Positions 954-20,002 of a stretch of DNA of 64,000 nt are shown here, one piece after another. This stretch comes from Candidatus Doudnabacteria bacterium (GTDB lineage: Bacteria; Patescibacteriota; Doudnabacteria; UBA920; O2-02-FULL-48-8): contig JAIFWV010000002.1 of assembly GCA_019659055.1 (NCBI GenBank), positions 26,047 through 90,046 on the forward strand, read 5' to 3'. The notes beneath the pieces are model-generated. The model was not told the DNA's origin, searched no databases, and worked only from the letters and a program-made list of their open reading frames with translations. The position numbers and the translations under genes were made by a program. Position 1 is the stretch's first letter; every line of letters begins with the position of its first letter.

Positions 954-1595
954 TTAAGTCTTTAAGTAAGTCTTTTCAATTATATCTAAAGCGTCTTTCA
1001 TGATTATCGAATCGTATTTGAGCAAGTCCAAAATGTTGAGCTGGTTGGCCAAGATCACCTTGGCGTTGGACAGATTGCGTCCGGCGCGTTCGACTTCCCT
1101 GTTTGCAGTCGGGATAACCAATAAAAATTTCTTGCCCAATCCGGCGCGGTCGGCAACTCTGGTGAGCATACCGGACAATTCCTTGGATTTAGCGACGTTT
1201 TCCAATTTATCAACTATGACCAATTTCTTGTCTCGGATTTTATCGGACAAAACGGTAAACAATGCTTTGCGAAAAGCCGAGCGGTTCATCTTGAGCGACC
1301 AATCAACTTCGTTGCGCGGACCAAATGTGATGCCGCCATGGCGCCACAATGGTGAGCGGAAGGAGCCGGCGCGAGCGCGGCCCGTGCCTTTTTGCTTCCA
1401 TGGCTTCTTACCAGTACCTGCGACTTCGCCGCGGGTCTTGGTATGAGCAATAGAACGACGGGCATTGTTTCTCTGGGTGCGCACAGCGGCCCAAACCAGA
1501 TTTGCATCCAATTCTTCCAAACCAAAAATCTTTGGATTCAAATCCAGATCGGAAACTTTTTCGCCAGATTGATTATAAACTGCGGCTTTGTTCAT
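954..1595 (-). CDS. rplD: 50S ribosomal protein L4
   Basis: 213-aa translation with L4 motifs (GTGRARAGS.RSPLWRHGG, KFLLVIP); start ATG overlaps upstream stop (ATGA). Confidence 0.9.
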   Translation of the reverse strand: MNKAAVYNQSGEKVSDLDLNPKIFGLEELDANLVWAAVRTQRNNARRSIAHTKTRGEVAGTGKKPWKQKGTGRARAGSFRSPLWRHGGITFGPRNEVDWSLKMNRSAFRKALFTVLSDKIRDKKLVIVDKLENVAKSKELSGMLTRVADRAGLGKKFLLVIPTANREVERAGRNLSNAKVILANQLNILDLLKYDSIIMKDALDIIEKTYLKT

Positions 1596-2272
1596 AATTT
1601 CTCAAACTGCTTCATTAATTCCGGGTAGTCGGTAAAGATTCCATCGACTCCCAGTTTCCTCATTCGTTCGTACTCGTGCCTATCGTTGACTGTCCAAACC
1701 AAAACTTTTTTTGCCAAAAGTCTCAGGATGAGCATCGTGGCGTAAGAGACATATGTGCTCTGCGGATTTACAGAATAGAGTTTGTCTTTACGAGTCAGAA
1801 AACTAATTATAGTTCGGAGGCTCCATTCGCCTTTGGCGAATATGAGACCCAATTGGACGTTTCCGTCCAAAGTTCTGAACTTCTTCAATACTCCCGGATA
1901 AAACGAGGAGATCAGAACCTTGTGCGGAAAACTTTTTAATTTGGCAAAGACTTGTTCTTCGATGCCATGAACCTTGATCTCGATATTGAGATCGGTATGG
2001 ATCACTGCCAAAACTTCGTCGAGAGTCGGGATTTCGCGGCCGTGTTCGGCGCTGACCCGTTTGATTTCGGACAATACCGTGTCGCGAATCAATCGCGGAT
2101 CACCGAACAATCTCAGCATATCGTGATCGTGGACAACCACGAGTTCGCCGTCTGCCGACTTGCGAACATCGAGTTCCAACATATCGGCACCCATGCTCTC
2201 TGCTTTTTGAAAAGAACGGATTGTGTTCTCCGGTTCGGTACCCGAAGCGCCCCTGTGCGCTATAATCTGCAT
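1592..2272 (-). CDS. glycerophosphodiester phosphodiesterase (GDPD/UgpQ family)
   Basis: 226 aa; N-terminal IAHRGASG..PENT and ELDV..DGELVVVHD motifs typical of GDPD; lies between rplC and rplD with TAAATG and ATGA junctions. Confidence 0.8.
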   Translation of the reverse strand: MQIIAHRGASGTEPENTIRSFQKAESMGADMLELDVRKSADGELVVVHDHDMLRLFGDPRLIRDTVLSEIKRVSAEHGREIPTLDEVLAVIHTDLNIEIKVHGIEEQVFAKLKSFPHKVLISSFYPGVLKKFRTLDGNVQLGLIFAKGEWSLRTIISFLTRKDKLYSVNPQSTYVSYATMLILRLLAKKVLVWTVNDRHEYERMRKLGVDGIFTDYPELMKQFEKL

Positions 2273-2893: not shown

Positions 2894-3018
2894 CGCGAGC
2901 GACGTGTTACTAAGAATTTATCTTAGCCGTCGCGTGGCGATCTTTTTTAATAGTTTGCTTCGTCGGTCACAATGCTAACGCTGTGTTTGACCTCCTCGCA
3001 ATGGGCATATTTAAGCTT

Positions 3019-3066
3019 TAAAAAAACCGTTCATGATCCCGAATTATTCAGAAGCCTGAACGGTTC
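3019..3066 (-). terminator. terminator-like hairpin between rpsJ and rplC
   Basis: minus strand: AACCGTTCA...TGAACGGTT 9-bp stem followed by TTTTTTTAAAGC, 50 nt after rpsJ stop. Confidence 0.5.
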
Positions 3067-3118
3067 TTCTAGATTGGCGATTTCCGGGAGGATCTATCCA
3101 ACCTGTATTAAATTGTGG

Positions 3119-3442
3119 TTACATCTTAATTTCAATATCAACCCCAGCAGGGAGATTGAGATTGCTCAGCGCGTCTATGGTTTTGGGTGTTGGGGAGGCA
3201 ATGTCGATTAATCGCTTATGGATGCGCATCTCGAATTGTTCTCGGGCATTTTTGTGCACGAAAGTCGAACGATTGACGGTATATTTGGACTTTTCGGTAG
3301 GCAAAGGGACTGGGCCGATAACCTCAGCACCAGTTCGTTTGGCCGTCTCCACAATCGAGCGGGCAGATTGATCAATAAGCTTATGGTCATAAGCTCTGAT
3401 TTTGATGCGGATTCTAGCTGAATCTATCTTTTCGGCAGGCAT
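3119..3442 (-). CDS. rpsJ: 30S ribosomal protein S10
   Basis: 107 aa; [39 protein letters not shown] is canonical S10. Confidence 0.92.
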
Positions 3443-3498
3443 TGAGATTTTAAAGGATAAGTTATAACGGATGTTTCCCGACTTGGGGCAACTGGTTT

Positions 3499-3527
3499 AA
3501 AATACACTATTTTTGGCAGTTTGTCAA
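3499..3527 (-). promoter_or_regulatory. sigma70-type promoter for rpsJ (TTGACA-17-TATTTT)
   Basis: minus strand reads TTGACAAACTGCCAAAAATAGTGTATTTT about 55 nt upstream of rpsJ ATG. Confidence 0.6.
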
Positions 3528-3558
3528 CTCCGGGGTTTGGGCGGCAAAGACCCAAAGG

Positions 3559-3586
3559 ACTACCCCGAGACCGGGGTAGTCCTAAG
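3559..3586 (-). terminator. rho-independent terminator downstream of tuf
   Basis: minus strand: GGACTACCCCG-GTC-TCGGGGTAGTCC hairpin followed by TTTGGGTCTTT. Confidence 0.7.
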
Positions 3587-3590
3587 TGGC

Positions 3591-4790
3591 TTATTTGGTG
3601 ATTTTGAGTACTACACCGGCACCGACTGTGTGTCCGCCTTCGCGGATAGCAAAGCGCTGTTTTTCTTCCAATGCAACCGGGGAAATCAGCTTAACTTTGA
3701 TAGAAACTGTATCGCCTGGCATGACCATTTCCTGGCCGGCTGGCAATTCAACTTCGCCTGTAACGTCTGTGGTTCGGATGTAGAATTGAGGCTTGTAGCC
3801 CTTGAAGAACGGAGTGTGTCGTCCGCCTTCTTCCTTGTTGAGGACATAGACTTCAGCGTCAAATTCGGTATGAGGAGTAACTGAGCCTGGCTTGCAGAGT
3901 ACTTGTCCGCGCTCGACTTCGTCCTTCTTGGTTCCTCGCAAAAGCACACCCGCATTGTCGCCTGCTCGGCCTTCGTCGAGTTGCTTGTTGAACATTTCGA
4001 TACCAGTGACTACGGTCTTGGCGGTTGGGCGCAAACCCATGATTTCGACTTCATCGGAAACTTTGACAATACCGCGCTCGATACGGCCAGTAACAACTGT
4101 GCCGCGGCCTTCTATGGAGAAGATGTCTTCGATAGCCATAAGGAATGGCTTGTCGATGTCGCGCACTGGTTCTGGGATTTGAGCATCCAAAGTTTCGAGA
4201 AGTTTAACAATGGAATCAACACCGGCCTGGTCGCCCTGAATCGCTTTGAGAGCGCTTCCGCGGACGATGGCAGTAGTTTTGCCGTCGAAACCGTATTTGG
4301 TGAGCAGGTCGCGGACTTCTTCTTCGACGAGGTCGAGAAGTTCCTGGTCTTCCACCATATCTACCTTGTTGAGGAAGACGACGATTGCTGGCACGCCAAC
4401 TTGCTTAGCCAAGAGGATGTGTTCGCGGGTCTGAGGCATTGGGCCGTCGACTGCGTTCACAACCAAAATTGCACCGTCCATCTGGGCGGCACCGGTGATC
4501 ATGTTTTTGACATAATCAGCGTGGCCCGGACAGTCGACGTGTGCGTAGTGTCTGTTTGGGGTTTCGTATTCGACGTGTGAGGTCGAGATGGTCAAGATCT
4601 TAGTTGGATCTCGGCGACCTTGTGATTCTGACGCCTTGGCGACTTCATCGTAAGGGACGAACTTTTTGGTCCAGCCCTTATCGAAGGAGACTTTGGTCAA
4701 AGCGGCAGTGAGAGTGGTTTTGCCGTGGTCGACGTGGCCGATTGTACCCACGTTGACGTGCGGCTTGGAACGTTCAAATTTGTCTGCCAT
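3591..4790 (-). CDS. tuf: elongation factor Tu
   Basis: [22 protein letters not shown] GTPase motifs; start taken at [15 protein letters not shown] (4790) rather than track 4808. Confidence 0.95.
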
Positions 4791-5050
4791 TTGTATAGCC
4801 TTTCGCAATTTTTAAGTGGTATCCAGTCAGTCCCGAGCCTTAACCGAAAGCCCTATCGACCAGGCTTTTAGCCAAGTTCAGGATGACGCCAATCTTAAAA
4901 AACGCTTAAAATTAATTTTAATGCCATAAGATTATAAAGGATTTGTGAGGCTTTGTAAAGGGTCAGAAGCCTTGTGGATAAGTGGCCAAAAACCAGCCAT
5001 TTCAACGGCTCACACCCCGTGTGAGCCGTTGAACCAAACTGCACCTATCA

Positions 5051-5079
5051 TTGACTTAGCAAAGAAATTCTGCTAAAAT
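5051..5079 (+). promoter_or_regulatory. sigma70-type promoter (TTGACT-17-TAAAAT) for gmk-like transcript
   Basis: TTGACTtagcaaagaaattctgcTAAAAT; about 250 nt upstream of the gmk ATG. Confidence 0.55.
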
Positions 5080-5085
5080 GTCTTC

Positions 5086-5328
5086 GATTCCTGATCCGCT
5101 CTCACGGACCGAGGAAGGGGGCTTTCTAACTACCGGGTGAAGCTACGAGACAGGGGGTATCGTAGCCGGATCTGGTTTTGGCACCAATGGTTGGTGTAGT
5201 TGGAAGTCTATAACCCCCTTCATTCTTTTCATGAGAATAAGGGTGTGAATCAGCCGTCTACTTCGATTAGTGACGGTCTTTTTTATGCCAATTTTGGTCC
5301 TCCCGACACTCGGACTACAGGTGCTTAA
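5086..5328 (+). ncRNA. long structured 5' leader ending in terminator-like hairpin (candidate riboswitch/attenuator, class unidentified)
   Basis: nested complementary segments (GGGGGTAT../..ATAACCCCC, ACCAATGG/TTGGT) and CCGTC..GACGG hairpin followed by TCTTTTTTAT at 5254-5290, between promoter and ATG 5329. Confidence 0.3.
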
Positions 5329-5912
5329 ATGCAATTTTTTTGCTATAAATACCTTACGGCAAAAACAAAACATTTGGTCTTTGGATTCGTGGGAGACTCC
5401 GGGTCTGGCAAATCCACTCTCATGATCGAACTTCTCAATTTCTTCCCGCATCTTGAGATAATCAAATCCACTTCCACCAGAGCGCGGCGCGACGACACTG
5501 ACGATTTGTTCTACAAGCTGGTCGGTATGGATTATATGGACAATCCCGAAAACCAGAAGAATTTCCTCAATCACGAAATCTATGCGGGCAATCATTACGT
5601 CTACGAGCGCTCTATCCTCGACCAGGTTCTGCGCTCACATTGCGGCATGTTTGCCATCATCGAATCCGCTGTGCCAAAAATCCAGAAAGCAGGATACGAT
5701 GTACGACTCATCAAAGTCGTCCCAATTGTGACTGGGATTTGGATCGGACTCGAGAGCGCCAGAGCGAAGACCAGCTTCGCGCCACGCAAGGCGGATTGGT
5801 TTTTGATCTCGTTATCGAAAACTCATTTCGGCCCGGCGGATTGGAACAATCAGTCGAGACTGCCGCAAAATTCATTCAGGACCAAATCCACGGGCACCAC
5901 CCCGGGAATTGA
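5329..5912 (+). pseudogene. gmk: guanylate kinase (gmk-like) with apparent +1/-1 frameshift near nt 5725-5745
   Basis: frame 1 gives P-loop GDSGSGKST and STSTRARR (TTRxPR motif); alignment to Gmk continues in another frame (track ORF 5640..5912: LDRTRERQSEDQLRATQGG..FDLVIEN..); frame-1 tail after the shift is low-complexity. Confidence 0.6.
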
Positions 5913-5960
5913 CAGAACCCCCCAGAACAGGTATAAATAGGAATCATTAACGGAGGATTC

Positions 5961-6227
5961 ATGAGTATCTTGGATCGACTCTTTGATTTTTTCCATCGTA
6001 CCGAGGACACCCGGGCCACTCCTGTCTTGGAATACGTGGCTCCTCCCCGCGAAGTCACCAAGTACCATCTGCACGACCACGAGTTCGAGGGTCTGGTCGA
6101 TCACTACTTGGCAGACGAGTACTACATCGACGTGGAGCGGGCGAAGCTCCACCTCAAAGACTGCAAGGAATGCACCGACGTTTTCTGCGGTTTCTGGAAT
6201 CGCATGAGACGGCAGAAGGTCGCCTAA
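5961..6227 (+). CDS. hypothetical small His/Cys-containing protein (88 aa)
   Basis: SD GGAGGA 7 nt before ATG; His-rich HLHDHEFEGLVDH and C-terminal CKECTDVFC; stop overlaps next start (TAATG). Confidence 0.55.
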   Translation: MSILDRLFDFFHRTEDTRATPVLEYVAPPREVTKYHLHDHEFEGLVDHYLADEYYIDVERAKLHLKDCKECTDVFCGFWNRMRRQKVA

Positions 6228-6502
6228 TGTCTCGCTACAGAGGACTAGGACGAGCTCGAACCCGGGCCAACCGGGGCGCGCGCGAGAGCGCAGACATACG
6301 GTTACTAGAGGAAGAATACCTGAGACTCCATCCCGAGATCCGGGGGTTCGAGGACAGAATCTGCTTAATAGCCCCGAACTGCCCTGATTTTGATCGCAGA
6401 CTCCCGTTCAGAATTCCGTACTGCGATCCCCATGTGCGTGAGTGCGAAAAATGCCAGGAAAAAATGGCAGCATCCGGATTCCCATATCCAAAGGAGCGTT
6501 AA
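6227..6502 (+). CDS. hypothetical Cys-rich small protein (91 aa, zinc-ribbon-like)
   Basis: ATG overlaps upstream stop (TAATG); Cys pattern C..NC...C..HVREC..EKC; basic Arg-rich N-terminus. Confidence 0.5.
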   Translation: MSRYRGLGRARTRANRGARESADIRLLEEEYLRLHPEIRGFEDRICLIAPNCPDFDRRLPFRIPYCDPHVRECEKCQEKMAASGFPYPKER

Positions 6503-6741
6503 TGCCAGTCACAAAACTTGCTTCGGCGGTAAACGCGATCACCATCCCAGCCGATGACCTGGTTCAGACGGTCAGTGAGCACGAGAGACTGGGCGAGCGC
6601 ATAATCGCTACAGTCCCAGGAGGACTTCAACTCAAAAGGACCGGAAGCGGGCGCAATAGCGTGATCGAAGTCATCCCGACTTCTTTCACCCTCATTCTCG
6701 GGCAAGAGAGACACCGCGACTACCGAAACGGTGAATCCTAA
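6502..6741 (+). CDS. hypothetical protein (80 aa)
   Basis: perfect AAGGAG 6 nt upstream, TAATG coupling to previous ORF; followed by terminator. Confidence 0.5.
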   Translation: MPVTKLASAVNAITIPADDLVQTVSEHERLGERIIATVPGGLQLKRTGSGRNSVIEVIPTSFTLILGQERHRDYRNGES

Positions 6742-6751
6742 TCGCTATCGC

Positions 6752-6786
6752 GGCGTGGACGTACATACGTCCCGCCGCTTTTTTTA
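6752..6786 (+). terminator. rho-independent terminator
   Basis: GGCGTGGACGT-ACAT-ACGTCCCGCC hairpin then TTTTTTTAT. Confidence 0.65.
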
Positions 6787-6854
6787 TTAATTGCTTGCGC
6801 TCGCTAGCATTATTTTTATTTGTTAAAATATTTTCAAACCCTACGGAGGCCCTA

Positions 6855-7076
6855 ATGGATTTTCAGGAGAAATCCGTCAGCTTTCATCAGTTCACTGCAG
6901 ACGTGGACAAGCTGAGAATTTTGATGATGTGCTATCGGACTTGCGAACAACCCAAAAACACCAACCCTGACACTGACGAGGTCGTAAACGCTTACAATCA
7001 TATGTTTGGGCATGGCGGACGATGCCAAGAATGCTTCCCCTATGCCGTCAAGCTACTCAGTCTCCTGGAAAATTAA
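6855..7076 (+). CDS. hypothetical zinc-ribbon-like small protein (73 aa)
   Basis: SD GGAGG 5 nt before ATG; CYRTC ... CQEC Cys pairs. Confidence 0.5.
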   Translation: MDFQEKSVSFHQFTADVDKLRILMMCYRTCEQPKNTNPDTDEVVNAYNHMFGHGGRCQECFPYAVKLLSLLEN

Positions 7077-7077
7077 A

Positions 7078-7112
7078 AACGGCGCGCCTCCTTTTTTGAA
7101 GGCCGCCGTTTT
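7078..7112. terminator. bidirectional terminator (small ORF on plus strand; fusA on minus strand)
   Basis: AACGGCGCGCC-loop-GGCCGCCGTT hairpin flanked by A-run upstream and TTTCGTTTTCC downstream. Confidence 0.6.
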
Positions 7113-7239
7113 CGTTTTCCAATTATTTATTTAGCGAGGCATTTGTAAAAGCAACCCGCGGAGGACGACGGTCCGAGCGCGTAGGCCGAAATTTTAGCAA
7201 AAATTTACGGCCGGTGCTTTTACAAATATGCCGAGCGCC

Positions 7240-9372
7240 TTATTGTCCGACTTGTCCCACGCGGACTTTGCCAGATTCGCCGATAATTTTCTCGGCCACA
7301 TTTCTTGGCACTTCCTCGTATTTGAGAAACTCCATAGTGTAGGAAGCCTGTCCCTGGGACATGGATCGGATTTGGGTGGCGTAGCCAAACATTTCCGCCA
7401 GCGGGACTTCTGCGTCAATTATTTTGAGGTTGCCGCGATCGGTCATTTCAAGGATTTTGCCGCGCTTGGCGTTGAGGTCGCCGATGACATCGCCCATGGC
7501 TGATTCCGGGGTCGTGACCTCGACTTTCATAATCGGTTCGAGAATGATTGGGTTGGCTTTTTTCACGGCGGACTGGAAAGCCATGGATCCGGCAATTTTG
7601 AAAGCGATTTCAGAAGAGTCAACCTCGTGGTAACTGCCATCGTAGAGCGTGGTTTTGACGTTGAGCACTGGGAATCCGGCAATAACGCCGCGATCCTCTG
7701 CTTCCGCAATACCTTTTTCTATCGGTTTGATATATTCCTTGGGTACGGTGCCGCCAACGATTTCATTTATAAATTCATTGCCTTTCTCTGGATCATCCTG
7801 CGGTTCGATTCGTATCCAGACGTGACCATACTGACCCTTACCGCCGGTCTGGCGGATGTATTTGCCTTCGGCATCAGCTTTACCGCGAATAGTTTCTTTG
7901 TAAGCAACTTGGGGTTTACCAACATTGGCCTCGACTTTGAATTCGCGCTTCATGCGGTCAACCAAAATTTCCAAGTGCAGTTCGCCCATACCCGCAATCA
8001 AAGTTTGCTGGACTTCTTCGTCAGTGCTGACTCGGAAAGTCGGATCCTCTTCTGCGAGTTTTTGCAAAGCCAAACCCATCTTTTCTTGATCGGCTTTGGT
8101 CTTTGGTTCGATAGCAACCGAAATAACCGGTTCTGGGAATTTGATCTTCTCAAGCATTACAGGGAAATCGACATCACAAAGCGTATCGCCAGTGAAGGTA
8201 TCTTTCGGCCCGACCAGGGCCGCGATATCGCCGGAATGAACTTCCTTAACCTCTTCGCGGGAATCGGCATGCAATCGGACCAAGCGGCCAACACGTTCTT
8301 TGTTTCCGGAACGGGCGTTTAGAATATATGAACCGGCTTGAAGGACTCCTGTGTAAACTCGGAAGAACGCCAATTTGCCGACAAAGGGGTCAGTTGCGAT
8401 TTTGAATGCCAAGGCTACAAACTTGTCGCTATCGTTTGGAGTCAGTAAAATTTCTTCTTGAGTCTTGGTATTGATAGCCTTAATCGGGGGCTTATCTAAC
8501 GGTGAGGGCAGGTAGTTCACTACCGCATCCAAGAGCGAAGTCACGATAAGTCCGCGTCCATCTCCGCCGAGGACTGGGAAAAACTTTCCCGACAAGGTCG
8601 AGGTTCGGATAGCTTTTATCAACTCCTGGTCGCTGATTTCCTCGCCGGCCAAATATTTTTCCATGAGAGCATCATCTGATTCGACAACTTTTTCTATGAG
8701 CTTCAACCGGTACTCGCGCGCTTTCTCAAGCATGTCGGCTGGGACTTCGCCTTCGGTAAAGGTCTTGTCCTTGTGCTCCTTGTATGTATAGGATTTCATC
8801 TTCACCAAATCGACAATGCCGTTGATGTCTTTTTCAAACCCAATCGGTAGTTGGATCGGGAAGGCGTTGGGCGACAAGCGCTTGTGAATCGCATCCAAAG
8901 ATTTATAAAAATCGCCGCCAGTCTGGTTGATCTTGTTTATAAAGCACATGCGGGGTACTGCGTATTTGTCGGCTTGGCGCCAGACGGTCTCGGACTGAGG
9001 TTCTACACCCATCTTACCGTCGAAGACCACGACTGCGCCGTCGAGCACGCGTAAAGATCGCTCGACTTCGACTGTGAAGTCCACGTGTCCGGGGGTGTCG
9101 ATGATGTTGATGCGGTGAGTGTCGGGAGATTTACCGCCAGATTGCAGTGTCCGCGACCAAAAGCTGGTGGTGGCCGCCGCGGTAATCGTGATGCCGCGTT
9201 CGCGTTCCTGCTCCATCCAGTCCATGGCAGTGTTGCCTTCGTGGACTTCGCCAATCTTGTGGATCTTGCCGGTATAAAACAAAATCGACTCGGTAGTGGT
9301 GGTCTTACCGGCATCGATGTGGGCAATAATCCCGATGTTTCTGGTTTGTTCTAGGCTGTATTCTCTAGGCAT
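7240..9372 (-). CDS. fusA: elongation factor G
   Basis: 710 aa; [21 protein letters not shown] motifs and full EF-G domain order. Confidence 0.95.
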
Positions 9373-9394
9373 TTAAAAAATTTTCAGTTGTAAA

Positions 9395-9898
9395 TTATCT
9401 TCGCTGGAATCGGGCAAAGTGGGCAAAAGCTTTATTGGCTTCGGCCATGCGGTGCACGTCTTCGCGCTTCTTGATAGCCGCACCCTGCTTGTTGAAGGCT
9501 TCCATAAGTTCGGTGGCCAGTTTTTGGGCCATGGGTTTGCCTTTTTTGCCGCGGGCGGCGTCGATAATCCATTTCATGCCGAGCGCGGTCTTCCGCGGCT
9601 CTTGCACTTCCATAGGCACTTGGTAGTTGGCACCGCCAATACGGCGGCCTTTGACTTCCAGAATCGGACAGACATTGCGTACTGCCTGCTCAAAAATCAT
9701 TTTGCCATCGGTTTTGACCCCGTCCTTGGCTGGCATTTCTTTTTCGATAATATCCAAAGCGCCATAGACGACTTTATTGGCAATAGTTTTCTTGCCGCGT
9801 TCCATGACGTAGTTTATAAACTTCGACAGCTTGACGCTGTTATACTTGTGGTCCGGATCCACCGGATGCTTCTTGTATGATCGTGCTTTTCGTGGCAT
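9395..9898 (-). CDS. rpsG: 30S ribosomal protein S7
   Basis: MPRKARSYKKHPVDPDHKYNS... canonical S7; track N-terminal 15 aa overlap the repeated intercistronic element so start at 9898 preferred. Confidence 0.88.
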   Translation of the reverse strand: MPRKARSYKKHPVDPDHKYNSVKLSKFINYVMERGKKTIANKVVYGALDIIEKEMPAKDGVKTDGKMIFEQAVRNVCPILEVKGRRIGGANYQVPMEVQEPRKTALGMKWIIDAARGKKGKPMAQKLATELMEAFNKQGAAIKKREDVHRMAEANKAFAHFARFQRR

Positions 9899-9961
9899 AT
9901 ATTTGGTCGTGATTCTTGAAACGTGGATCGTGAATCGCTTCACGTCTCACGCTTCACGTTT
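9899..9961 (-). repeat. conserved ~60-nt intercistronic element (rpsL|rpsG)
   Basis: minus strand ATAAAACGTGAAGCGTGAGACGTGAAGCGATTCACGATCCACGTTTCAAGAATCACGA.. Confidence 0.6.
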
Positions 9962-10374
9962 TATGGTCTCTTGGCTCCGTATTTAGATCGGGACCGCTTG
10001 CGGCCTTCGACGCCGCCGGCATCGAGCTTGCCGCGGACTATGTGATAGCGCATACCGGCCAAATCTTTGACGCGGCCGCCGCGAATCATGACCACCGAGT
10101 GCTCCTGTAAGTTGTGGCCGATGCCCGGGATATAGGCGTTGACTTCCATACCATTGCTCAGGCGGACCCGGGCAAATTTGCGGATAGCTGAGTTTGGTTT
10201 TCTCGGAGTCATGGTCGAGACTTTGATGCAGACCCCGCGCTTAAATGGGGATCCTTTGCGGATGGTATAGGTTTCTCCCTTAAGCGAATTGTAAACGCGC
10301 TCAAGTGCCGGAGACTTGGATTTATAAAATGACTTGGTTCGTCCTTTGCGGACTAATTGGTTGATTGTAGGCAT
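9961..10374 (-). CDS. rpsL: 30S ribosomal protein S12 (with a short internal insertion)
   Basis: [12 protein letters not shown]...PKKPNSA(I)[21 protein letters not shown] canonical S12. Confidence 0.92.
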
Positions 10375-10449
10375 GTGCGAAATTAAAACGGCAGATCTTG
10401 CCGTTGCAACTCAAACGGACTTAAATCTATTAAATATTTGTACCTGCAG

Positions 10450-10478
10450 ATAATAACAGGTTTTTTGCCTCCCGTCAA
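10450..10478 (-). promoter_or_regulatory. promoter for rpsL-rpsG-fusA (TTGACG-17-TATTAT)
   Basis: minus strand reads TTGACGggaggcaaaaaacctgtTATTAT about 75 nt upstream of rpsL ATG; 5' UTR then contains AACGGCAAGATCTGCCGTT hairpin plus TTTAATTT immediately before the ATG. Confidence 0.55.
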
Positions 10479-10502
10479 CCCTGTTTCCAATCCTCACTTC
10501 TA

Positions 10503-10531
10503 TTGACAAAATCACCAAAATGTTATATATT
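10503..10531 (+). promoter_or_regulatory. consensus sigma70 promoter (TTGACA-17-TATATT)
   Basis: TTGACAaaatcaccaaaatgttaTATATT, divergent from rpsL promoter. Confidence 0.6.
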
Positions 10532-10571
10532 TGTGAGTCGCAACGGAATTCTTTACAGTGGGAGGCTTAAG

Positions 10572-10793
10572 ATGCCAAAGAAGCAAAAGACCCTTCAGCA
10601 CAGTTTTCAAGTAAGATTCAGCGAAAAAACCATGGCGCAAATCATGGAACTCCAGGAGCATTACGGGGCGATTACAATCGCTGAAACAATCCGCCGTGCA
10701 GTCGAAGAACGTCACAAAGTAATGGAAAAGCAAACAAAAGGATTCTCAGTGTTCGGAAAGAGGGACTCCGAAACAATTGAATTCCTTCTCTAA
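10572..10793 (+). CDS. ribbon-helix-helix (CopG/Arc-like) DNA-binding protein, 73 aa
   Basis: SD GGGAGG; sequence ..FQVRFSEKTMAQIMELQEHYGAITIAETIRRAVEE.. fits the RHH beta-alpha-alpha pattern. Confidence 0.55.
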   Translation: MPKKQKTLQHSFQVRFSEKTMAQIMELQEHYGAITIAETIRRAVEERHKVMEKQTKGFSVFGKRDSETIEFLL

Positions 10794-10803
10794 CGGAGGG
10801 TTT

Positions 10804-11103
10804 ATGGGTGCCAAGAAAGGTTTGCTAAGTGGCAATAAATTTAATGGCAGGCATACTACAGTAATAGACGCTGCCATTCCGATGGTAATAGCGGCAAGCA
10901 AGCGGCCGGAAGTTACAAAGATCGTACTGAGCATCATCCGGCAAATTGGCCCAGGGCCGCAGAACCTAAAATTCAAACCAATACCAGCGGGACTTCAGAT
11001 GACCATCCGGAGTACCAACGCCAAGCAGGAATTTTATCTCTACACCTCAAGCCCCGACCTTACCAAGAAGGAATTGGAAAAAGCGTGGGCAAAGGAGGCC
11101 TAA
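10804..11103 (+). CDS. hypothetical protein (99 aa)
   Basis: SD GGAGGG 5 nt before ATG; followed by strong terminator. Confidence 0.5.
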   Translation: MGAKKGLLSGNKFNGRHTTVIDAAIPMVIAASKRPEVTKIVLSIIRQIGPGPQNLKFKPIPAGLQMTIRSTNAKQEFYLYTSSPDLTKKELEKAWAKEA

Positions 11104-11141
11104 CGGCAGATTCGCAGCAAATTGCGAAACTGCCTTTTTTA
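11104..11141 (+). terminator. rho-independent terminator
   Basis: GGCAGATTCGCAGCAAATTGCGAAACTGCC extended hairpin then TTTTTTA. Confidence 0.7.
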
Positions 11142-11172
11142 TTTGCTAAAAATCACCCAAATGGCCTAAGTC

Positions 11173-11201
11173 TTGACAAAATTGCCAAAAAGGAGTATAA
11201 T
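11173..11201 (+). promoter_or_regulatory. perfect consensus sigma70 promoter (TTGACA-17-TATAAT)
   Basis: TTGACAaaattgccaaaaaggagTATAAT. Confidence 0.65.
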
Positions 11202-11277
11202 TACTAGTTACGATCAAAACGGTTGTAACGCTTTAGAGTACAGCAAAGCCCACATATTTTGGGGCAAGGAGGACAGC

Positions 11278-11913
11278 ATGTCGTACATTGCAAACGTGTT
11301 CGGTGACCTGGACGATCAGAACAAGTACACCGACGACCTGTTGGCACAACTGCTTGCGCAACTCTTCGAGAAGCCGGCGGCGTGTGTCGATCAGGACGAC
11401 CGCTGCTCTTCCAAGCCCTTGAGCGACTCCGACACGAGCATCACGCTCGATTGCGGCAAGATCGTCAAGCGCTGCAGCTACCACACGAAGGTGTTGTCGG
11501 TGCTCGAGACGGAAGTCCGCACCGTCTTCGCGGGTGTCGCTGTCAAAGCCATCCGCGAAGTCCAGAACGCGCGGGCGGCTGAGAAGGCCCGGATCGCGGC
11601 CGAGAAGAAGCTCTTCCGCGACGAGATCCGCAAGCACCTGGCGCGCAGCGTCGGTGTCACGGTGGAAATCGTAACCGAGGAGGACGTGACCGCGAAGATC
11701 GCGGCGATGACCGAGGACCAGAAGTACAAGCTCCTCGACATCGTGCTCAAGCGCGACCAGCCGGCGAAACCCGTCGTCAATGCGACGACGAAGCCCGGCC
11801 AGAAAAACCAGAAGCCCGCGAGCCCGCGGCCGACCCTGGTTCACACCAATCGACCCATGGGTGACGTCGCGCACCCCGGCGATCTCCGCCTCACTCAGGC
11901 CGCGAATCGCTAA
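11278..11913 (+). CDS. hypothetical protein (211 aa), G+C-rich
   Basis: SD AAGGAGG 7 nt before ATG (track ORF starts earlier at 11173); Ala/Lys-rich helical central region; flanked by promoter and terminators. Confidence 0.55.
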   Translation: MSYIANVFGDLDDQNKYTDDLLAQLLAQLFEKPAACVDQDDRCSSKPLSDSDTSITLDCGKIVKRCSYHTKVLSVLETEVRTVFAGVAVKAIREVQNARAAEKARIAAEKKLFRDEIRKHLARSVGVTVEIVTEEDVTAKIAAMTEDQKYKLLDIVLKRDQPAKPVVNATTKPGQKNQKPASPRPTLVHTNRPMGDVAHPGDLRLTQAANR

Positions 11914-11990
11914 CCGCAACCCACCGTCAGGGCAAATGACGAGGTGGCGAAGGTACCAGTTACCTTCGCCATTTTTTTATTCCAAAAAGA

Positions 11991-12027
11991 AAAGGGCGGG
12001 TAGTTTTAGAACTACCTCGCCCTATTT
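11991..12027. terminator. bidirectional terminator
   Basis: GGGCGGGTAGTT-TTAG-AACTACCTCGCCC hairpin with T-runs on both sides; also GGCGAAGGTA..TACCTTCGCC hairpin at 11945-11978. Confidence 0.6.
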
Positions 12028-12357
12028 TTAATGCCGATTGAGTCGGTCGCGGCGGTCTGCTCGAAACTGTTCGAGCTTGTCGTGCAGTTCGCGCCGGCTT
12101 TCGGGGTCCGGAACACTTCCAGCCAAGAGCAGATCAATAGTCTGGAGCAAACCGTCAATCTGACTCCGGCGTACGACGTCTTTGAGGGCTGTCGAACTCC
12201 CCTCTTTGAGGCCAATCAGCAAATCGCGAAAGTCTTCGAACAACTCCTTCACCGAATCAATGGCTTCGCCGCGCTCCAAAACTTTGGCACAGCGATAAGC
12301 CGCTCGCTTTTGGAGGTAAAGCTGGCGCTTAAGCTCCACAATCTGTTCATTGACCAT
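12028..12357 (-). CDS. hypothetical helical protein (109 aa)
   Basis: SD AAGGAGGTGAG directly before ATG; no recognisable family. Confidence 0.5.
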   Translation of the reverse strand: MVNEQIVELKRQLYLQKRAAYRCAKVLERGEAIDSVKELFEDFRDLLIGLKEGSSTALKDVVRRSQIDGLLQTIDLLLAGSVPDPESRRELHDKLEQFRADRRDRLNRH

Positions 12358-12383
12358 CTCACCTCCTTGAGTTTGGTTTCGTT

Positions 12384-13019
12384 TTAGAGCTGAAAATCTG
12401 TTCCCAACAAAAATTTAACACATGCAGAGACGAGTGGCAAGAGGATAGACGAAAAAAGTCCGGTGAACAGGAATAAAAAAATCAAAATAAACCCAAAGCG
12501 CTCAAGTTCCAGGATCCAGTACATAAGACCGCGGTCCACAAACCCGAGCGCACTGGCCAAAACTTTGGATCCGTCCAAAGGCGGGATCGGTATGAGGTTA
12601 AAAATTCCCAAAATGAGGTTGAGGAGGATGATTTGAAATACCAGTGCTTGCCCTTGTTCGGAGATTCCGGGGAAAAACCGAAACACCAGGCTTGCCGCTC
12701 CGGCCAAAAGGAAATTAGTAGCCGGTCCGGCCAACGCCACGAGTATCATGTCGCGCCGGAAATTCCTAAGGTTCTGGTAATTTACAGGCACGGGCTTGGC
12801 CGCGCCAAATATAAACGGCGAACCGACCAGATACAAGATTGCAGGCAGGAGAATCGACCCAAACGGATCGATATGCGGGATCGGGTTGAGAGTGAGACGG
12901 CCCGAATACCTTGCCGTAGGATCACCGAGCCAATCGGCAACTAACCCGTGCGCCACTTCGTGGAAAATCACGGAAAACAGCAGGATGAAGATAAAAAATA
13001 TGACGCTAAATGGATCCAT
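12384..13019 (-). CDS. site-2 protease family (peptidase M50) membrane metalloprotease
   Basis: HEVAH zinc motif in first TM region, NLIPIPPLDG motif, multiple TM segments. Confidence 0.8.
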   Translation of the reverse strand: MDPFSVIFFIFILLFSVIFHEVAHGLVADWLGDPTARYSGRLTLNPIPHIDPFGSILLPAILYLVGSPFIFGAAKPVPVNYQNLRNFRRDMILVALAGPATNFLLAGAASLVFRFFPGISEQGQALVFQIILLNLILGIFNLIPIPPLDGSKVLASALGFVDRGLMYWILELERFGFILIFLFLFTGLFSSILLPLVSACVKFLLGTDFQL

Positions 13020-13110
13020 GGGATAGAATTATGAATTTCGAATTATGAATTATGCTTATATTACATAGCCATAATTCCTGATTCCAGATTCCTAATTCGG
13101 ACCCAAGGCA

Positions 13111-13139
13111 TTGACCAAAGCCTGTCCGTATGCTAAACT
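13111..13139 (+). promoter_or_regulatory. promoter for rpmB (TTGACC-17-TAAACT)
   Basis: TTGACCaaagcctgtccgtatgcTAAACT 27 nt upstream of rpmB ATG. Confidence 0.5.
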
Positions 13140-13165
13140 CTTTGGGTACCTTAATTGTAACACAT

Positions 13166-13351
13166 ATGAGAAAATGTACGATCTGCGGCAAAGGCTATAT
13201 GAATGCCATGAGACGATCACACTCGATGCGGGCGACGAAAGTCAAACTTTATCCCAATTTGCAATGGCTTAAGACCGAGCATGGCCGGATAAAAGCCTGT
13301 ACCAAGTGCATCAAGACTCAAGCCAAACGGTTAGCCGCTGTTACCGCATAA
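13166..13351 (+). CDS. rpmB: 50S ribosomal protein L28
   Basis: MRKCTICGKGYMNAMRRSHSMRATKVKLYPNLQ... matches L28 (C.ICGK..GN..SH..TKR..PNL), second Cys pair CTKC; followed by perfect hairpin terminator AAACCTCTTCA-GGAA-TGAAGAGGTTT at 13351-13388. Confidence 0.8.
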   Translation: MRKCTICGKGYMNAMRRSHSMRATKVKLYPNLQWLKTEHGRIKACTKCIKTQAKRLAAVTA

Positions 13352-13398
13352 AAAACCTCTTCAGGAATGAAGAGGTTTTTAAATTTCCGATTTACAAT

Positions 13399-14073
13399 TT
13401 ATTTTGTTACTGCAAATGTGTCTTGCCAGGCTTTTTGGCCTTCTTGATCGGCAAAGAGCGCATACTGGCCGATGCTAAAGAAGAAATATTTGTCGGGGTG
13501 ACTCTTGTCCATCCAGAAATAGCTGGCGCCGTTGCTGGCTGAATAAACCGGCGGGCATTTATCGGCGTTTTGCCAGAAAGGCGCGTTGGGATCGGTACTT
13601 TTGGGATATGCGATCACAGCGACTTCCTGATTCTCGGGGATGACCGGCGCGTCGGCGTCATAGCTTTTGTAATAATCAGCCAAAGTCAAAGGATAGCAAT
13701 CCTTGACTGAATAATTGGCCAGGAATTTCTTTTGGATTGATGCAATGAGAGTATCTTTCGGATCTTTGGTAAAACCCTGTACCCATTGCCCTTGTTCCAT
13801 AGGGTTTGCGGTATAGTAAACATAAATCTTGTCCCCGGCCTCTTTGGCGTCGGTGTCAGTTTTCCCGTCGCCATCCTGATCGGCGCTGTATGTAAACTTC
13901 ACTCCCAAGCTGTCTGAAGTAAAGGTTTTGACCGTGTCTTGATTATTATTGGAGTTGCCAGTGTTGGTTTGGGTGGTCCCCTGATCTTTAGGTTTAATCT
14001 TCACATACGGCAAGAGAAAATAACCTATTGCCAGCAGTACGACTACAAAAATGATCGTTTTGAGGGTTGTCAT
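13399..14073 (-). CDS. hypothetical membrane-anchored/secreted protein (224 aa)
   Basis: N-terminal TM helix, then Gln/Thr/Asn-rich linker and Asp-rich region; no family recognised. Confidence 0.55.
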   Translation of the reverse strand: MTTLKTIIFVVVLLAIGYFLLPYVKIKPKDQGTTQTNTGNSNNNQDTVKTFTSDSLGVKFTYSADQDGDGKTDTDAKEAGDKIYVYYTANPMEQGQWVQGFTKDPKDTLIASIQKKFLANYSVKDCYPLTLADYYKSYDADAPVIPENQEVAVIAYPKSTDPNAPFWQNADKCPPVYSASNGASYFWMDKSHPDKYFFFSIGQYALFADQEGQKAWQDTFAVTK

Positions 14074-14105
14074 TCGAGGAAAAATTAATAGTTAACCTGA
14101 TCTTA

Positions 14106-17100
14106 TCAGAATAACGCCGGCTTGCCTAGACTTGCCACCACCGAGACATAACGGTCCTCGTTGAGGATCTCAGACAGGGAATGCGCGGGCATTGCTCCAT
14201 TGAACAGATACCCTTGCGCGCGATTGCACATATTTTCCCGCAAAAACGCCAGCTGATTTTTGGATTCCACTCCTTCGGCTGTTATTTCCATGTTGAGACT
14301 GCGCCCGAGCGTGATAATTGATTTCGCAATTGCCGAATTTTGCATATCCATGGGGATACCCTTCATGAAAGTTCTCTCGATTTTGAGCATATCCACCGGA
14401 AAATGTTTGATGTAGCGCAAAGACGAATACCCGGTCGAAAAATCATCGAGGCAGAATCTGACTCCCCGTTCGCGCAAGGCATTCATGATGCTTGTAATAT
14501 TGTCTTCATTTTCGGCCAGGATTGATTCTGTAAGTTCGAGTTCCAGAAAACGAGCGTCAAATTTGGATTCTTCGATAGCGCCGATGAGGACATTCTCAAA
14601 ATTCTTCTGCTTGAATTGCCGGGCCGAAAGATTGATAGCCATAATCATTTTGTAGCCGGCATCGTGCCACATCTTCCCCTGCTTCAAGGCTTCTTTGAGT
14701 ATCCATTCGCCAATGGGTTCTATGAGTCCGTTGGCTTCTGCCAATGGGATAAACCGGTCAGGCAAAATCAGCGTCATATCCGGCCTCTGCCAACGGATAA
14801 GCTCTTCTGTCCCAACTATTTTACCTGTGGCGACATCTACTTGCGGCTGGTAAAACAGCACGAACTCCTGGTTTTCCAGAGCGTGTCGAAGCTTGGAATC
14901 CAGAGTTAGCCGTTCGTAGGCCGCCGAATTCATTGTGGTCGTATAGAACTGATAGGTATTGCGGCCGTATTCCTTGGCGCGATAAAGTGCGGCCTCGGCA
15001 TTTCTGAGCAGACTCGAGGCCTCTCTGCCGTCGTATGGATAAAGGCTGATACCAATACTCGGGCTGATAAACAGCTCGTGCTGGTCAAGGTAAAACGCGG
15101 GCCGGAAATCCTCCAAAATTTTATTGGCAAGCTTAGCCGCTTCTTCTTCGGTCTGGATATCGGCCATAAGGATTGCAAATTCATCACCGCCAAGCCGAGC
15201 TAAGACATAATCTTCTTTGACACAGCTGCGTACGCGCAAAGCGACTTCCTGAATCAGGCGATCGCCCAAAGCATGACCCAGAGATTCGTTTATTTGCTTA
15301 AATCGATCGAGATCGAGGAGCATAATTCCCAAATTCTGACCGTTGGCTTCGGCATCCGAAATAGCTTGCGCGAACCGTTCATTGAGGTAAGTCCGATTGG
15401 GCAGATCCGTGAGAGTGTCGTGATGGTACTGATACTGCAGGTTTTCTTCCGCGAGCCGGCGTTCGGTGATATCGCGAAAGTTTACAACCATGGCCCGAAT
15501 ACTCGGGTGGTGCAAAAGATTTGTACCTACTCCCTCAATCCAGCGATAGTTGCCATTGGCATGGCGGCAGCGGTATTGTGCGGTAATCGTCTGGTCCGGC
15601 TTGCGCAAGCTCGTGGCCAGAAGCTCGGCCACCAGCGGGGCGTCGTCGGGGTGCACTATATTTCTAATATTTACTCCGTGCATTTCTTCCGATGTGTATC
15701 CAAGCATACGCTGGACCGGCATGGTCGCAAATGTCAGGACACCGTTGGCATCGAGGAGTGCCACGCCGTCTGAGGTGTTATCGATAATAGCGCGGTACCG
15801 CTCTTCGCTGACCTGAAGTTTCTGTTCCATGAATTTACGCTCACGGATCTCTATCTGAGCTTCCCGATAGAGTAAGGCGTTGTCGATGGCCATGCCGGCG
15901 CGTCGGCCGAGCTCTTCGAAGAATTTAAGATCCTTCTCCTCATAGCGCTTGTTGGACTCTGCCCAGATCAAGGACATGACCCCGAAGACTTTATCGCGTG
16001 CGACCAAAGGCACCATAAGTGCGGACTTAATACCGAGCTTGGACGTGAGTTCATAATGCTCCGGATCGCGCGAACTGGCGCGGAGCATGTCGTCGGTAAT
16101 CTCCTTATAGATTTCAGCTTTTCCGGTGGTGATGATTTTCCAGGTCCCACGCTCCGGATCTTTGTGATTCGGATACTTTCTTGCCAATTCCACAGCAAAT
16201 TTTATTTTTTCCGGGTCCACGTGTTCTACTGCGACTTGCTTTGTGTTTTCGCCGTCAGGAGTGAGAATTTCGATTCCGCACCAATCGGCAAATTTGGGGA
16301 CGGCTAATTTCGCCACTCGCGCCAGTGTTGTCTCAAAATCCAAAGACGATGATAATAATTTCGTAGCTTCGGATAAAAACACGACCCCTTCGTCGGCTTG
16401 TTTGGATTTCGTAATGTCGCGAGCCACGGCCGAGGCACCCACGACTTTGCCGGAATTATTTTTTATTGGCGAGACCGCCACGGATATGTCCAAAATCCGT
16501 CCGTCTTTGGTTTTCCTTTTGGTCTCATAGTGATTAACACCCCTGCCGAGTCGGATCTGCGCCAAAAGCATTCTGGTGTCATCCGGAAAGCCTTCCGGAA
16601 CCAAGACTGAAACATTCTTGCCGAGAATTTCTTGTTCGGTATAGCCATATATCCTTACCGCTCCTTTATTCCAGCTCGTGATGTTGCCTTCTAGATCTTT
16701 GCCCATGATCGCGTCCTCAGACGATTCAACTATAGCTACAAGTTTGAGATTGGCCTCGAGGGCGGTTTTTTGAGGAGTGATGTCGCGCAGATACACAGCA
16801 AGGCCGTCTTTGGCGGGGTACACTGAGGATTCTATCCACTTCGGCATATTTCCCGGTTCAGAAAATTTTTCTTCGTAACGCAGGGATTTATTTTCCAACA
16901 AGGCTTCCTGCAGTTTGGAATAGGTCGCGGTCTGCATTGCGTTTGGAAATTCCTGAAAAATATTTTTTCCCAGAAGCTCGCTCCGGTTCCGCTGTAACAA
17001 CTGTTCGGCTTGGCGGTTGACGTATGTAAAGTTCCAATCTTTATCCAACGCAAAAAAGCCGTCAGTAATACTTTCGAGAATATGCTGGTTCCGGCGATTG

Positions 17101-19743: not shown

Positions 19744-20002
19744 AATAACGCTCGCATTGATTGTAAATCTACCGGCCGTAAATTTCTGGTGAAATTTCGG
19801 CCTACTCGCTCGGACCAGTCGTCCTGCGCGGGTTAGATTTACAACAAAGCTCGCTAATTTAATATTATTGTAATAAATAATTTAGAAAAAATCATCACTA
19901 TTTTGTGGTGATTTTTTCTTTGCAAAAAAAAGAGGCTCAAGACCTGCACGTATACCGTGCTAGATCGTGAGCCCCGCTTCTGGCCGAGGTGACCAGAGAT
20001 TG

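Follow-up and report, generated by a model that had tools for sequence, protein, structure and literature searches.

Multigene insertions that separate the concatenated operons rpoBC-str-S10-spc have been described in Gammaproteobacteria (PMC6735719). Here we analyze an interval between fusA and tuf, the genes for elongation factors EF-G and EF-Tu, in a 64,000-nt stretch of a Candidatus Doudnabacteria genome (assembly GCA_019659055.1, contig JAIFWV010000002.1, positions 26,047 to 90,046 of the forward strand), which is referred to below as the window. The two genes are separated by a 2.4-kb plus-strand cassette that contains a frameshifted guanylate-kinase-like gene, four small open reading frames (sORFs) and two intrinsic terminators. 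From the comparisons described below, our verdict is that the locus represents a clade-conserved, fast-evolving accessory cassette of one Doudnabacteria clade. The whole interval is, in the reading that we favor with moderate confidence, composed of three things of different age, namely a tuf control region, the old clade cassette, and a genome-specific insertion.

Layout of the fusA-tuf interval

The minus-strand genes of the window follow in the order rpsL, rpsG, fusA, gap, tuf, rpsJ, rplC, a glycerophosphodiester phosphodiesterase gene, and rplD. The gap holds the cassette, which is divergent from tuf and convergent on fusA.

9961-10374, minus strand: rpsL
9395-9943, minus strand: rpsG
7240-9372, minus strand: fusA (EF-G), convergent with the cassette
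6855-7076, plus strand: sORF5, 73 aa, family C, N-terminus MDFQE...
6502-6741, plus strand: sORF4, 79 aa, no Cys, orphan
6227-6502, plus strand: sORF3, 91 aa, family B
5961-6227, plus strand: sORF2, 88 aa, family A
5329-5940, plus strand: kinase open reading frame (ORF) as annotated (KW788_00930), 203 aa
3591-4790, minus strand: tuf (EF-Tu), start codon ATG 4790-4788, at which ATGGCAGACAAA aligns with the MADK/MAEK starts of relatives

A mechanical ORF call begins tuf at TTG 4808; this start was rejected, as the alignment with relatives places the conserved MADKF start at ATG 4790. The fusA-tuf spacer is therefore 4791-7239, 18 nt longer than implied by the coordinates of the original prediction, which had been made from the sequence of the window. 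Gene order and coordinates bear out its proposal that an antisense cassette lies between fusA and tuf. The canonical Shine-Dalgarno sequences and TAATG stop/start overlaps that it listed are also present, the former (GGAGG/AAGGAG type) ahead of each of the four sORFs and the latter at two sORF junctions. On the other hand, the suggested antisense transcription into tuf does not agree with the orientation of the cassette, which diverges from tuf, so that read-through would enter fusA instead. The GC content of the spacer (0.44-0.58) is similar to that of neighboring DNA. A promoter scan revealed eight promoter-like sites around the cassette, compared with 2.3 expected in shuffles, and scans of the interval for tRNA and tmRNA genes found none. 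A search of the published literature found nothing on this locus.

Conservation of the cassette in related lineages

Metagenome contigs found via the kinase, family B or the DNA pattern of the tuf leader provided 12 further lineages with the cassette (L001, L004, L007, L009, L012, L014, L015, L017, L018, L019, L020, and L021), and a metagenome scan anchored on the tuf promoter plus leader gave two loci only. In all 12 lineages the cassette lies in the same spacer, either between fusA and tuf or beside whichever of these genes the contig reaches. Its length is 0.8-2.8 kb where both ends are visible, and it is antisense to fusA and tuf in every lineage except L007. The flanking fusA/tuf DNA is only 75-79% identical where measured (L014, L017, and L018), and thus the arrangement is old and not a private insertion. 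The locus had originally been taken for an unusual insertion; it appears instead to be an old feature of the clade, although no annotated function is attached to any of the small proteins.

The kinase gene is present in the window and in 7 of the 12 lineages (L001, L004, L007, L009, L012, L014, and L019), at 46-69% identity. In L015, L017, L018, L020, and L021 the sequenced part of the locus shows no kinase, although the L020 contig may begin downstream of the gene. A jackhmmer search over all cassette ORFs assigned family B to eight lineages including the window, family C to three, family A to two, and sORF4 to no other lineage.

In L007 (ENA ERZ1823576 HuN_farmland_Scaff3198419, positions 7199-10002) the kinase cassette as a whole runs in the same direction as fusA and tuf, and an additional 219-aa ORF with no assigned family is located upstream of the kinase.

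The guanylate-kinase-like gene

Two features of the window belong to the kinase part of the cassette.

5340-5350, plus strand: ancestral cassette promoter with extended -10 (TTGCTATAAAT), located within the annotated ORF, where it is translated as FCYK
5356-5912, plus strand: guanylate-kinase-like gene, probable pseudogene, orthologous start ACG at 5356-5358, 1-nt deletion at the Pro codon 5722-5724

When corrected for frame, the window protein can be aligned over its full length with 11 homologues that have no break (180-214 aa), which confirms the original description of a guanylate-kinase-like gene with a frameshift. A single base is missing in the Pro codon 5722-5724: the N-terminal 132 aa are in the frame of position 5329, and the C-terminal 60 or so aa are shifted to the -1 frame, which ends at 5912. 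In addition, the start ATG of the relatives is replaced by ACG, so the window gene has neither an intact reading frame nor the orthologous start codon. Programmed -1 frameshifting was considered and rejected, as the sequence at the shift, GTC GTC CCA ATT, contains no slippery heptamer X XXY YYZ and the homologues are all single-frame. Given two lesions in one gene, the intact neighboring genes, and the related cassettes that show no kinase, we regard the gene with considerable confidence as most likely a pseudogene. In the relatives, the ATG of the kinase gene is only 6-7 nt past the conserved TGCTATAAAT promoter and is not preceded by a Shine-Dalgarno sequence, which suggests that their kinase mRNA is leaderless.

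Guanylate kinases from PDB match the family profile (best E-value 8.5e-14, others to 1e-9), and the best library match of the kinase is PHROG 1815, a phage guanylate kinase (2.9e-11). The scores with established models are low: the intact relatives reach 42-65 bits with TIGR03263 versus a cutoff of 160, and the window ORF has 21.6 bits with PF00625 versus a gathering score of 25.2. PF00625 is listed in the precomputed Pfam annotation of the relatives. Examination of the alignment of 12 family members revealed invariant residues G22, S24-K28, S47, T48, T50, R51, R54, Y62, N88, and Y90. The P-loop and the residues binding the phosphate of guanosine monophosphate (GMP; S/T-T-R, R, Y, and GN-x-Y) are in place and align to the motifs of PDB 1z6g and 1s96. 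The guanine-recognizing acidic residue is missing, as the column of the Glu in 'FLEH' of E. coli Gmk is filled by Asn, Ser or Thr in all 12 proteins; similarly, the Thr of 'YGT' has changed to Tyr. We take these Glu and Thr residues to be guanine contacts in E. coli Gmk. Because the presumed contact Glu is replaced, the kinase substrate may differ from GMP. Judged by its alignments, the family is clearly related to guanylate kinases and yet divergent. A scan of GTDB genomes with the kinase alignment gave a 24%-identical protein of Daviesbacteria as the only match among those listed, and no close relative was among the matches listed for IMG/VR viral contigs (in both cases the pattern is the generic P-loop). 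The PADLOC defence models matched the kinase only as generic P-loop noise (E at least 3e-4) and gave nothing for the sORFs.

The small proteins

Three of the four small proteins, encoded by sORF2, sORF3, and sORF5, contain the motif H-x3-C-x2-C, in agreement with the Cys/His-rich character originally ascribed to the sORFs; sORF4 has no Cys. The motif occurs seven times in all six-frame ORFs of at least 50 aa in the window, versus 0.95 expected from composition. Besides the three cassette proteins, one occurrence is in the bL28 gene and one in a large aminoacyl-tRNA-synthetase-like ORF (both assigned by eye), and two are in doubtful frames.

The family B proteins (sORF3) have an Arg-rich N-terminus and invariant residues C52, P60, H69, C73, and C76 in 10 sequences, and a full HMMER scan found 10 members among 1.84 billion representatives. 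Every genomic context of family B that could be examined lies in the fusA-tuf spacer. The AlphaFold2 model (pLDDT 77) consists of four helices with the motif at a helix-helix junction, and the simplest reading of the C...H-x3-C-x2-C set is a zinc site with a structural or sensory role. The family is also encoded in cassettes without an observed kinase (L015, L020, and L021), and this, together with the broken kinase gene of the window, weakens the earlier suggestion that the small proteins work with the kinase.

In sORF2, the residues H48...H64-x3-C68-x2-C71 are common to both known members of family A. The only homologue lineage (L009/L011) is 37.5% identical, a profile search with the family recovered only already known sequences, and the AlphaFold2 model of sORF2 was unusable (pLDDT 60). 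The sORF5 protein contains C-x3-C and H-x3-H-x3-C-x2-C (HGGRCQEC) and has homologues in the L014 and L020 cassettes. The sORF4 gene, for which none of the searches found a homologue anywhere, overlaps sORF3 by TAATG and has an AAGGAG Shine-Dalgarno sequence, and is thus predicted to be translationally coupled to sORF3.

The small ORFs have no match in Pfam, PHROG, or PADLOC. The four sORFs concatenated also gave no match against 5.8 billion proteins, in a search with a word index and E-value scaling too strict for short proteins. By their motifs, the small proteins are probably zinc-binding proteins of new, very narrow families. Our best guess is that they act as zinc-dependent regulators that bind protein or RNA, with the promoters or the leader of the neighboring translation genes as their targets.

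The tuf control region

The interval 4791-4981 (about 190 nt, minus strand) is the promoter and 5' untranslated region (5'UTR) of tuf and does not belong to the cassette.

4973-4981, minus strand: DnaA-box-like TTATCCACA, just upstream of the tuf -35 element and between the divergent tuf and cassette promoters
4931-4959, minus strand: tuf promoter TTTACA-17-TATAAT, 11 of 12 matches, conserved in relatives
4826-4887, minus strand: conserved hairpin in the tuf 5'UTR, 62 nt, 24 pairs, candidate cis-regulatory RNA of the tuf-rpsJ-rplC... operon

The hairpin was analyzed in nine lineages (the window, L001, L005, L007, L009, L012, L015, L017, and L018). The proportion of paired cells in the alignment is 92.6%, versus about 53% when the partners are slid by one column. 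Compensatory changes are observed in six pairs, and none of 500 shuffles reaches the covariation score. Invariant G.U pairs are valid on the tuf-sense strand only. No Rfam family is matched by the hairpin, which may reasonably be considered a candidate regulatory leader of the tuf-S10 operon. When read on the plus strand, the conserved block next to tuf resembles 4.5S RNA of the signal recognition particle (SRP; AGCCAAG..CAG.AUGACGC). This assignment was rejected, as there is no Rfam SRP match and the G.U pairs fit the tuf sense only. The TTATCCACA box is exact in six of the nine aligned lineages (the window, L001, L009, L012, L005, and L007); the L018 fragment ends with CACA at this site, and L017 has TTATCAACA.

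The genome-specific structured insertion

The segment upstream of the annotated kinase ORF was originally described as a promoter of the cassette's own followed by a long structured leader. It contains the following elements.

4982-5300, plus strand: window-specific structured insertion (the promoter and leader of the original prediction)
5001-5033: perfect 15-bp hairpin within the insertion
5051-5079, plus strand: promoter-like TTGACT-17-TAAAAT (TTGACT-17-TGCTAAAAT), 10 of 12 matches with TG
5114-5221: multi-helix fold closed by GAAGGGGG/CCCCCTTC
5252-5284, plus strand: terminator-like hairpin (5252-5278, -13.2 kcal/mol, z = -3.5) followed by T6

These features do exist, but they are not the native control region of the cassette: no relative has them, and the kinase ATG of the relatives is 6-7 nt past TGCTATAAAT. 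The window itself retains the ancestral TGCTATAAAT promoter, which lies downstream of ATG 5329. Alignment of the tuf-kinase intergenic regions revealed two conserved parts, corresponding to window positions 4809-4981 and to the last 35 nt or so before the promoter, and the segment at about 4982-5300 is in no orthologous locus of any relative. No second copy of the insertion was found in the window or in 21 fetched loci, phage genomes and records gave no match to it, and there are no convincing terminal inverted or direct repeats bounding either 4982-5300 or the whole cassette.

The predicted fold of 5086-5292 has -76.7 kcal/mol and z = -3.2, and the reverse strand has z = -3.8. A cmscan search with Rfam 15 gave only noise for 3000-11000 at E-values up to 1 and for 4980-5345 at E-values up to 10, and the riboswitch family that the original prediction had proposed to look for was thus not found even on the short stretch. 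As in a riboswitch, a terminator hairpin with a U-run precedes an ORF; a described RNA family, conservation, and covariation are lacking. In our reading, the leader is structured DNA inserted between divergent promoters in this lineage only, which would be either inert palindromic DNA or a private transcript of about 200 nt, and not a conserved riboswitch.

L009 has an unrelated 155-nt structured repeat at exactly the insertion site of the window, between the two divergent promoters. Copies of this repeat are located in L009 (7790-7965) and in L001 (2007-2161, beside fusA); they are 82% identical and occupy two different positions in the cassettes.

Terminators and a structured repeat near fusA

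6750-6785, plus strand: intrinsic terminator closing the kinase-sORF2-4 unit, -23 kcal/mol, z = -4.6, followed by T7
7075-7118, both strands: bidirectional intrinsic terminator (A-run, hairpin, T-run), -20.4 kcal/mol on the plus and -25.2 on the minus strand
7142-7226, minus strand: Y-shaped repeat (three-way junction), 85 nt, directly 3' of fusA
19761-19864, plus strand: second copy of the Y-element, directly 3' of tRNA-Pro, with identical orientation to the upstream gene

Both terminators come from a separate analysis of hairpins and T-runs; the consensus terminator scan listed neither 6750-6785 nor 7075-7118. The two terminators of the original prediction are retained. The second was said to be shared with fusA; the Y-shaped repeat separates it from the fusA stop codon. 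The first terminator precedes sORF5, which is therefore probably a unit of its own.

The two Y-elements (about 85-100 nt) are 83% identical, and the arms of the outer stem differ at three positions each with complementarity fully kept. Their z-score is about -5.4 on either strand. The element has no T-run and no Rfam match.

Proposed organization and alternative explanations

In the favored reading, the tuf control region (4791-4981, minus strand) comprises the promoter, the covarying 5'UTR hairpin, and the TTATCCACA box, tuf needing control elements of its own because the cassette separates it from fusA. The old accessory cassette of one Doudnabacteria clade would be transcribed divergently from tuf off the conserved TGCTATAAAT promoter. 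In many relatives its first gene would encode a divergent guanylate-kinase-like nucleoside monophosphate kinase on an apparently leaderless mRNA, followed by a changing set of small proteins, the most constant of which is family B. In the window, the kinase gene would be decaying by the change of its start codon from ATG to ACG and the 1-nt deletion. In the small genes that follow, conserved residues and Shine-Dalgarno sequences are preserved; these genes could still be transcribed from the retained promoter, with termination at 6750-6785, and sORF5 would form a second short unit. Finally, the genome-specific structured insertion of about 320 bp lies between the two divergent promoters and would carry its promoter- and terminator-like signals by chance.

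Two other explanations concern the insertion. The 5051 promoter together with the leader at 5086-5328 could act as an attenuator or riboswitch that senses a ligand and controls a functional operon of the kinase and small proteins. The promoter-like site and the stable multi-helix fold agree with this, as do the hairpin and T6 about 40 nt ahead of ATG 5329 and the position of this codon, in frame with the kinase and behind a weak AGGTG Shine-Dalgarno sequence. However, the element has no Rfam match and is absent from all orthologous loci, its reverse strand folds equally, the ancestral promoter persists downstream of ATG 5329 with ACG as the orthologous start, and the gene under the supposed control is frameshifted; we consider this explanation very improbable. 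An independent small-RNA gene of about 200 nt (5051-5288), with its own promoter and terminator and placed between the tuf and cassette promoters by chance, is unlikely, albeit less so. Promoter-like and terminator-like signals bracket a stable fold, and the window and L009 each hold a structured insert at the same site between the promoters, the two inserts being unrelated. Against a small RNA are the lack of homologues in the window, in the 21 fetched loci and in phage records, the lack of an Rfam family, the strand-symmetric folding, and the weakness of the terminator hairpin (-13 kcal/mol).

The remaining explanations concern the genes. That the kinase is intact in vivo, the frameshift being an assembly or consensus error and translation starting at ATG 5329 or at a non-AUG codon, seems doubtful. 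The residues before and after the shift are well conserved, neither frame segment is interrupted by a stop codon, and metagenome assemblies contain indel errors (tuf or fusA is fragmented in L004, L005, and L012). Nevertheless, the 560-nt gene has two independent lesions and the adjacent tuf and fusA are intact, the deletion is outside any long homopolymer (CCCAAT), leaderless initiation depends strongly on a 5' AUG, and the kinase appears dispensable, as none was seen in four related cassettes (L015, L017, L018, and L021). The H-x3-C-x2-C proteins could also be zinc-binding anti-sigma factors (ZAS, zf-HC2), with sequestration of a sigma factor depending on redox state or metal, a role that we rate as distinctly unlikely. 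The motif with an upstream fourth ligand in sORF2, sORF3, and sORF5 and its position across the helix-helix junction of the family B model are as expected for such factors. Moreover, the cassette of L018, where no kinase was seen, encodes a 92-aa protein (3637-3915, minus strand) that scores 32.8 bits with Pfam zf-HC2 versus a gathering score of 22.2. At the same time, no window protein or family B member matches zf-HC2 (PF13490) at E-values up to 10, hhalign aligns them with the L018 protein in the motif only (1-15% probability), and no sigma gene was found in any cassette. A phmmer search of the 64-kb window with two ECF sigma sequences, RpoE and SigR (a weak test), gave no match at E-values up to 1. 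Even less probable is recent acquisition of the cassette as mobile or phage-derived DNA, a genomic islet and not an old clade feature. The phage guanylate kinase family PHROG 1815 as the best library match, the gene content that varies among lineages, the inverted orientation in L007, and the repeats resembling miniature inverted-repeat transposable elements that populate the spacer would fit such an origin. The cassette nonetheless has the same position in the window and 12 lineages with diverged flanks, and the deep divergence of the kinase fits a long stay beside host genes that have diverged as well. Neither an integrase or transposase nor repeats at the flanks were found, the GC content is like that of the neighbors, the matches listed for viral contigs include no close relative, the insertion has no phage match, PADLOC models gave no hit, and only the 85-nt Y-element (7142-7226) exists in a second copy.

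Several points weigh against the reading of the interval as an old cassette with a decaying kinase gene. The sampled contigs are only those found via the kinase, family B, or the tuf leader, and cassette-free relatives may be underrepresented among them. Mobile DNA acquired repeatedly could likewise account for the variable content, the L007 inversion, and the weak PHROG guanylate kinase match. An assembly error could underlie the frameshift. ATG 5329 is in frame, and read-through of the 5252-5284 hairpin by transcripts starting at the 5051 promoter could then yield a complete kinase. The model of family B has no significant structural neighbor, zinc binding and regulatory roles are proposed from motifs, and the proposed expression of all cassette parts from sequence signals.

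The fusA-tuf spacer could even be a dedicated regulatory hub, where family B binds the tuf 5'UTR hairpin or the divergent promoters with the TTATCCACA box and tunes expression of EF-Tu and the S10 operon to the metal, redox, or guanine-nucleotide state, with the kinase as an optional metabolic partner. This idea, for which we see very little chance, is based on the Arg-rich N-terminus of family B, like an RNA-binding arginine-rich motif, on its CHCC zinc module, and on the finding of the family in this spacer only.

If the favored reading is true, the most conserved gene string of bacteria (rpsL-rpsG-fusA-tuf-S10) can stably host a fast-evolving antisense small-protein cassette in the candidate phyla radiation (CPR), with the consequence that tuf gained a separate promoter and a structured leader that is conserved. 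Three small-protein families with no prior characterization are defined here, one of which, family B, belongs to this single locus in all contexts that were examined, as well as a new candidate cis-regulatory RNA, the tuf leader hairpin. A false lead is also removed: what looked like a gmk operon under riboswitch control would be a decaying gene behind a private insertion.

Neighboring genes

The glycerophosphodiester phosphodiesterase gene (1592-2272, minus strand; PF03009, 1e-41) is inserted co-directionally between rplC and rplD, and the same insertion is observed in all relatives whose contigs reach that far. On the other side of the locus, rpoB and rpoC are not upstream of rpsL (10400-17600 of the window). 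This region contains several small plus-strand ORFs with no families (10503-12387), an M50 peptidase gene (12384-13019), a gene at about 13160-13348 that likely encodes bL28 (by eye and from the annotation of relatives), and a gene for a 1164-aa PAS/GAF/GGDEF/EAL protein (14106-17600).

Comparison with known systems

No known system of defence, mobility, or regulation is matched by the locus, and its individual parts resemble several described systems. With guanylate kinase (Gmk; PF00625, TIGR03263) the cassette kinase shares the P-loop GxSGxGKS/T, the S-T-x-T-R...R...Y motif for GMP phosphate, GN-x-Y, and the Arg of the LID region. It differs in scoring far below the equivalog cutoff, in the replacement of the FLEH Glu and the YGT Thr, in being apparently dispensable, with none seen in four related cassettes, and in being broken in the window. 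The small proteins share with the ZAS/zf-HC2 proteins RsrA, ChrR, and RslA (PF13490) the motif H-x3-C-x2-C, a Cys or His ligand 16-18 residues upstream of it, and the small size and helical, soluble character, and a true zf-HC2 protein is encoded at the same locus in L018. In contrast to that family, they have no match by hidden Markov model, profile-profile comparison, or fold, no adjacent sigma gene was found, and the motif is near the C-terminus and not in an N-terminal anti-sigma domain.

Like the leaders of attenuating riboswitches, the insertion consists of a multi-stem fold closed by a helix, with a hairpin and U-run between this fold and an ORF. Unlike them, it has no family match, conservation, or strand asymmetry, and it lies upstream of the conserved native promoter of the gene. 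With the insertions of Gammaproteobacteria (PMC6735719), the cassette shares accessory genes wedged into a conserved string of translation genes, the downstream part of which has its own promoter. Here, however, the break is within the str operon, between fusA and tuf, and the insert is antisense and 0.8-2.8 kb long, with its position conserved across a CPR clade and its content turning over.

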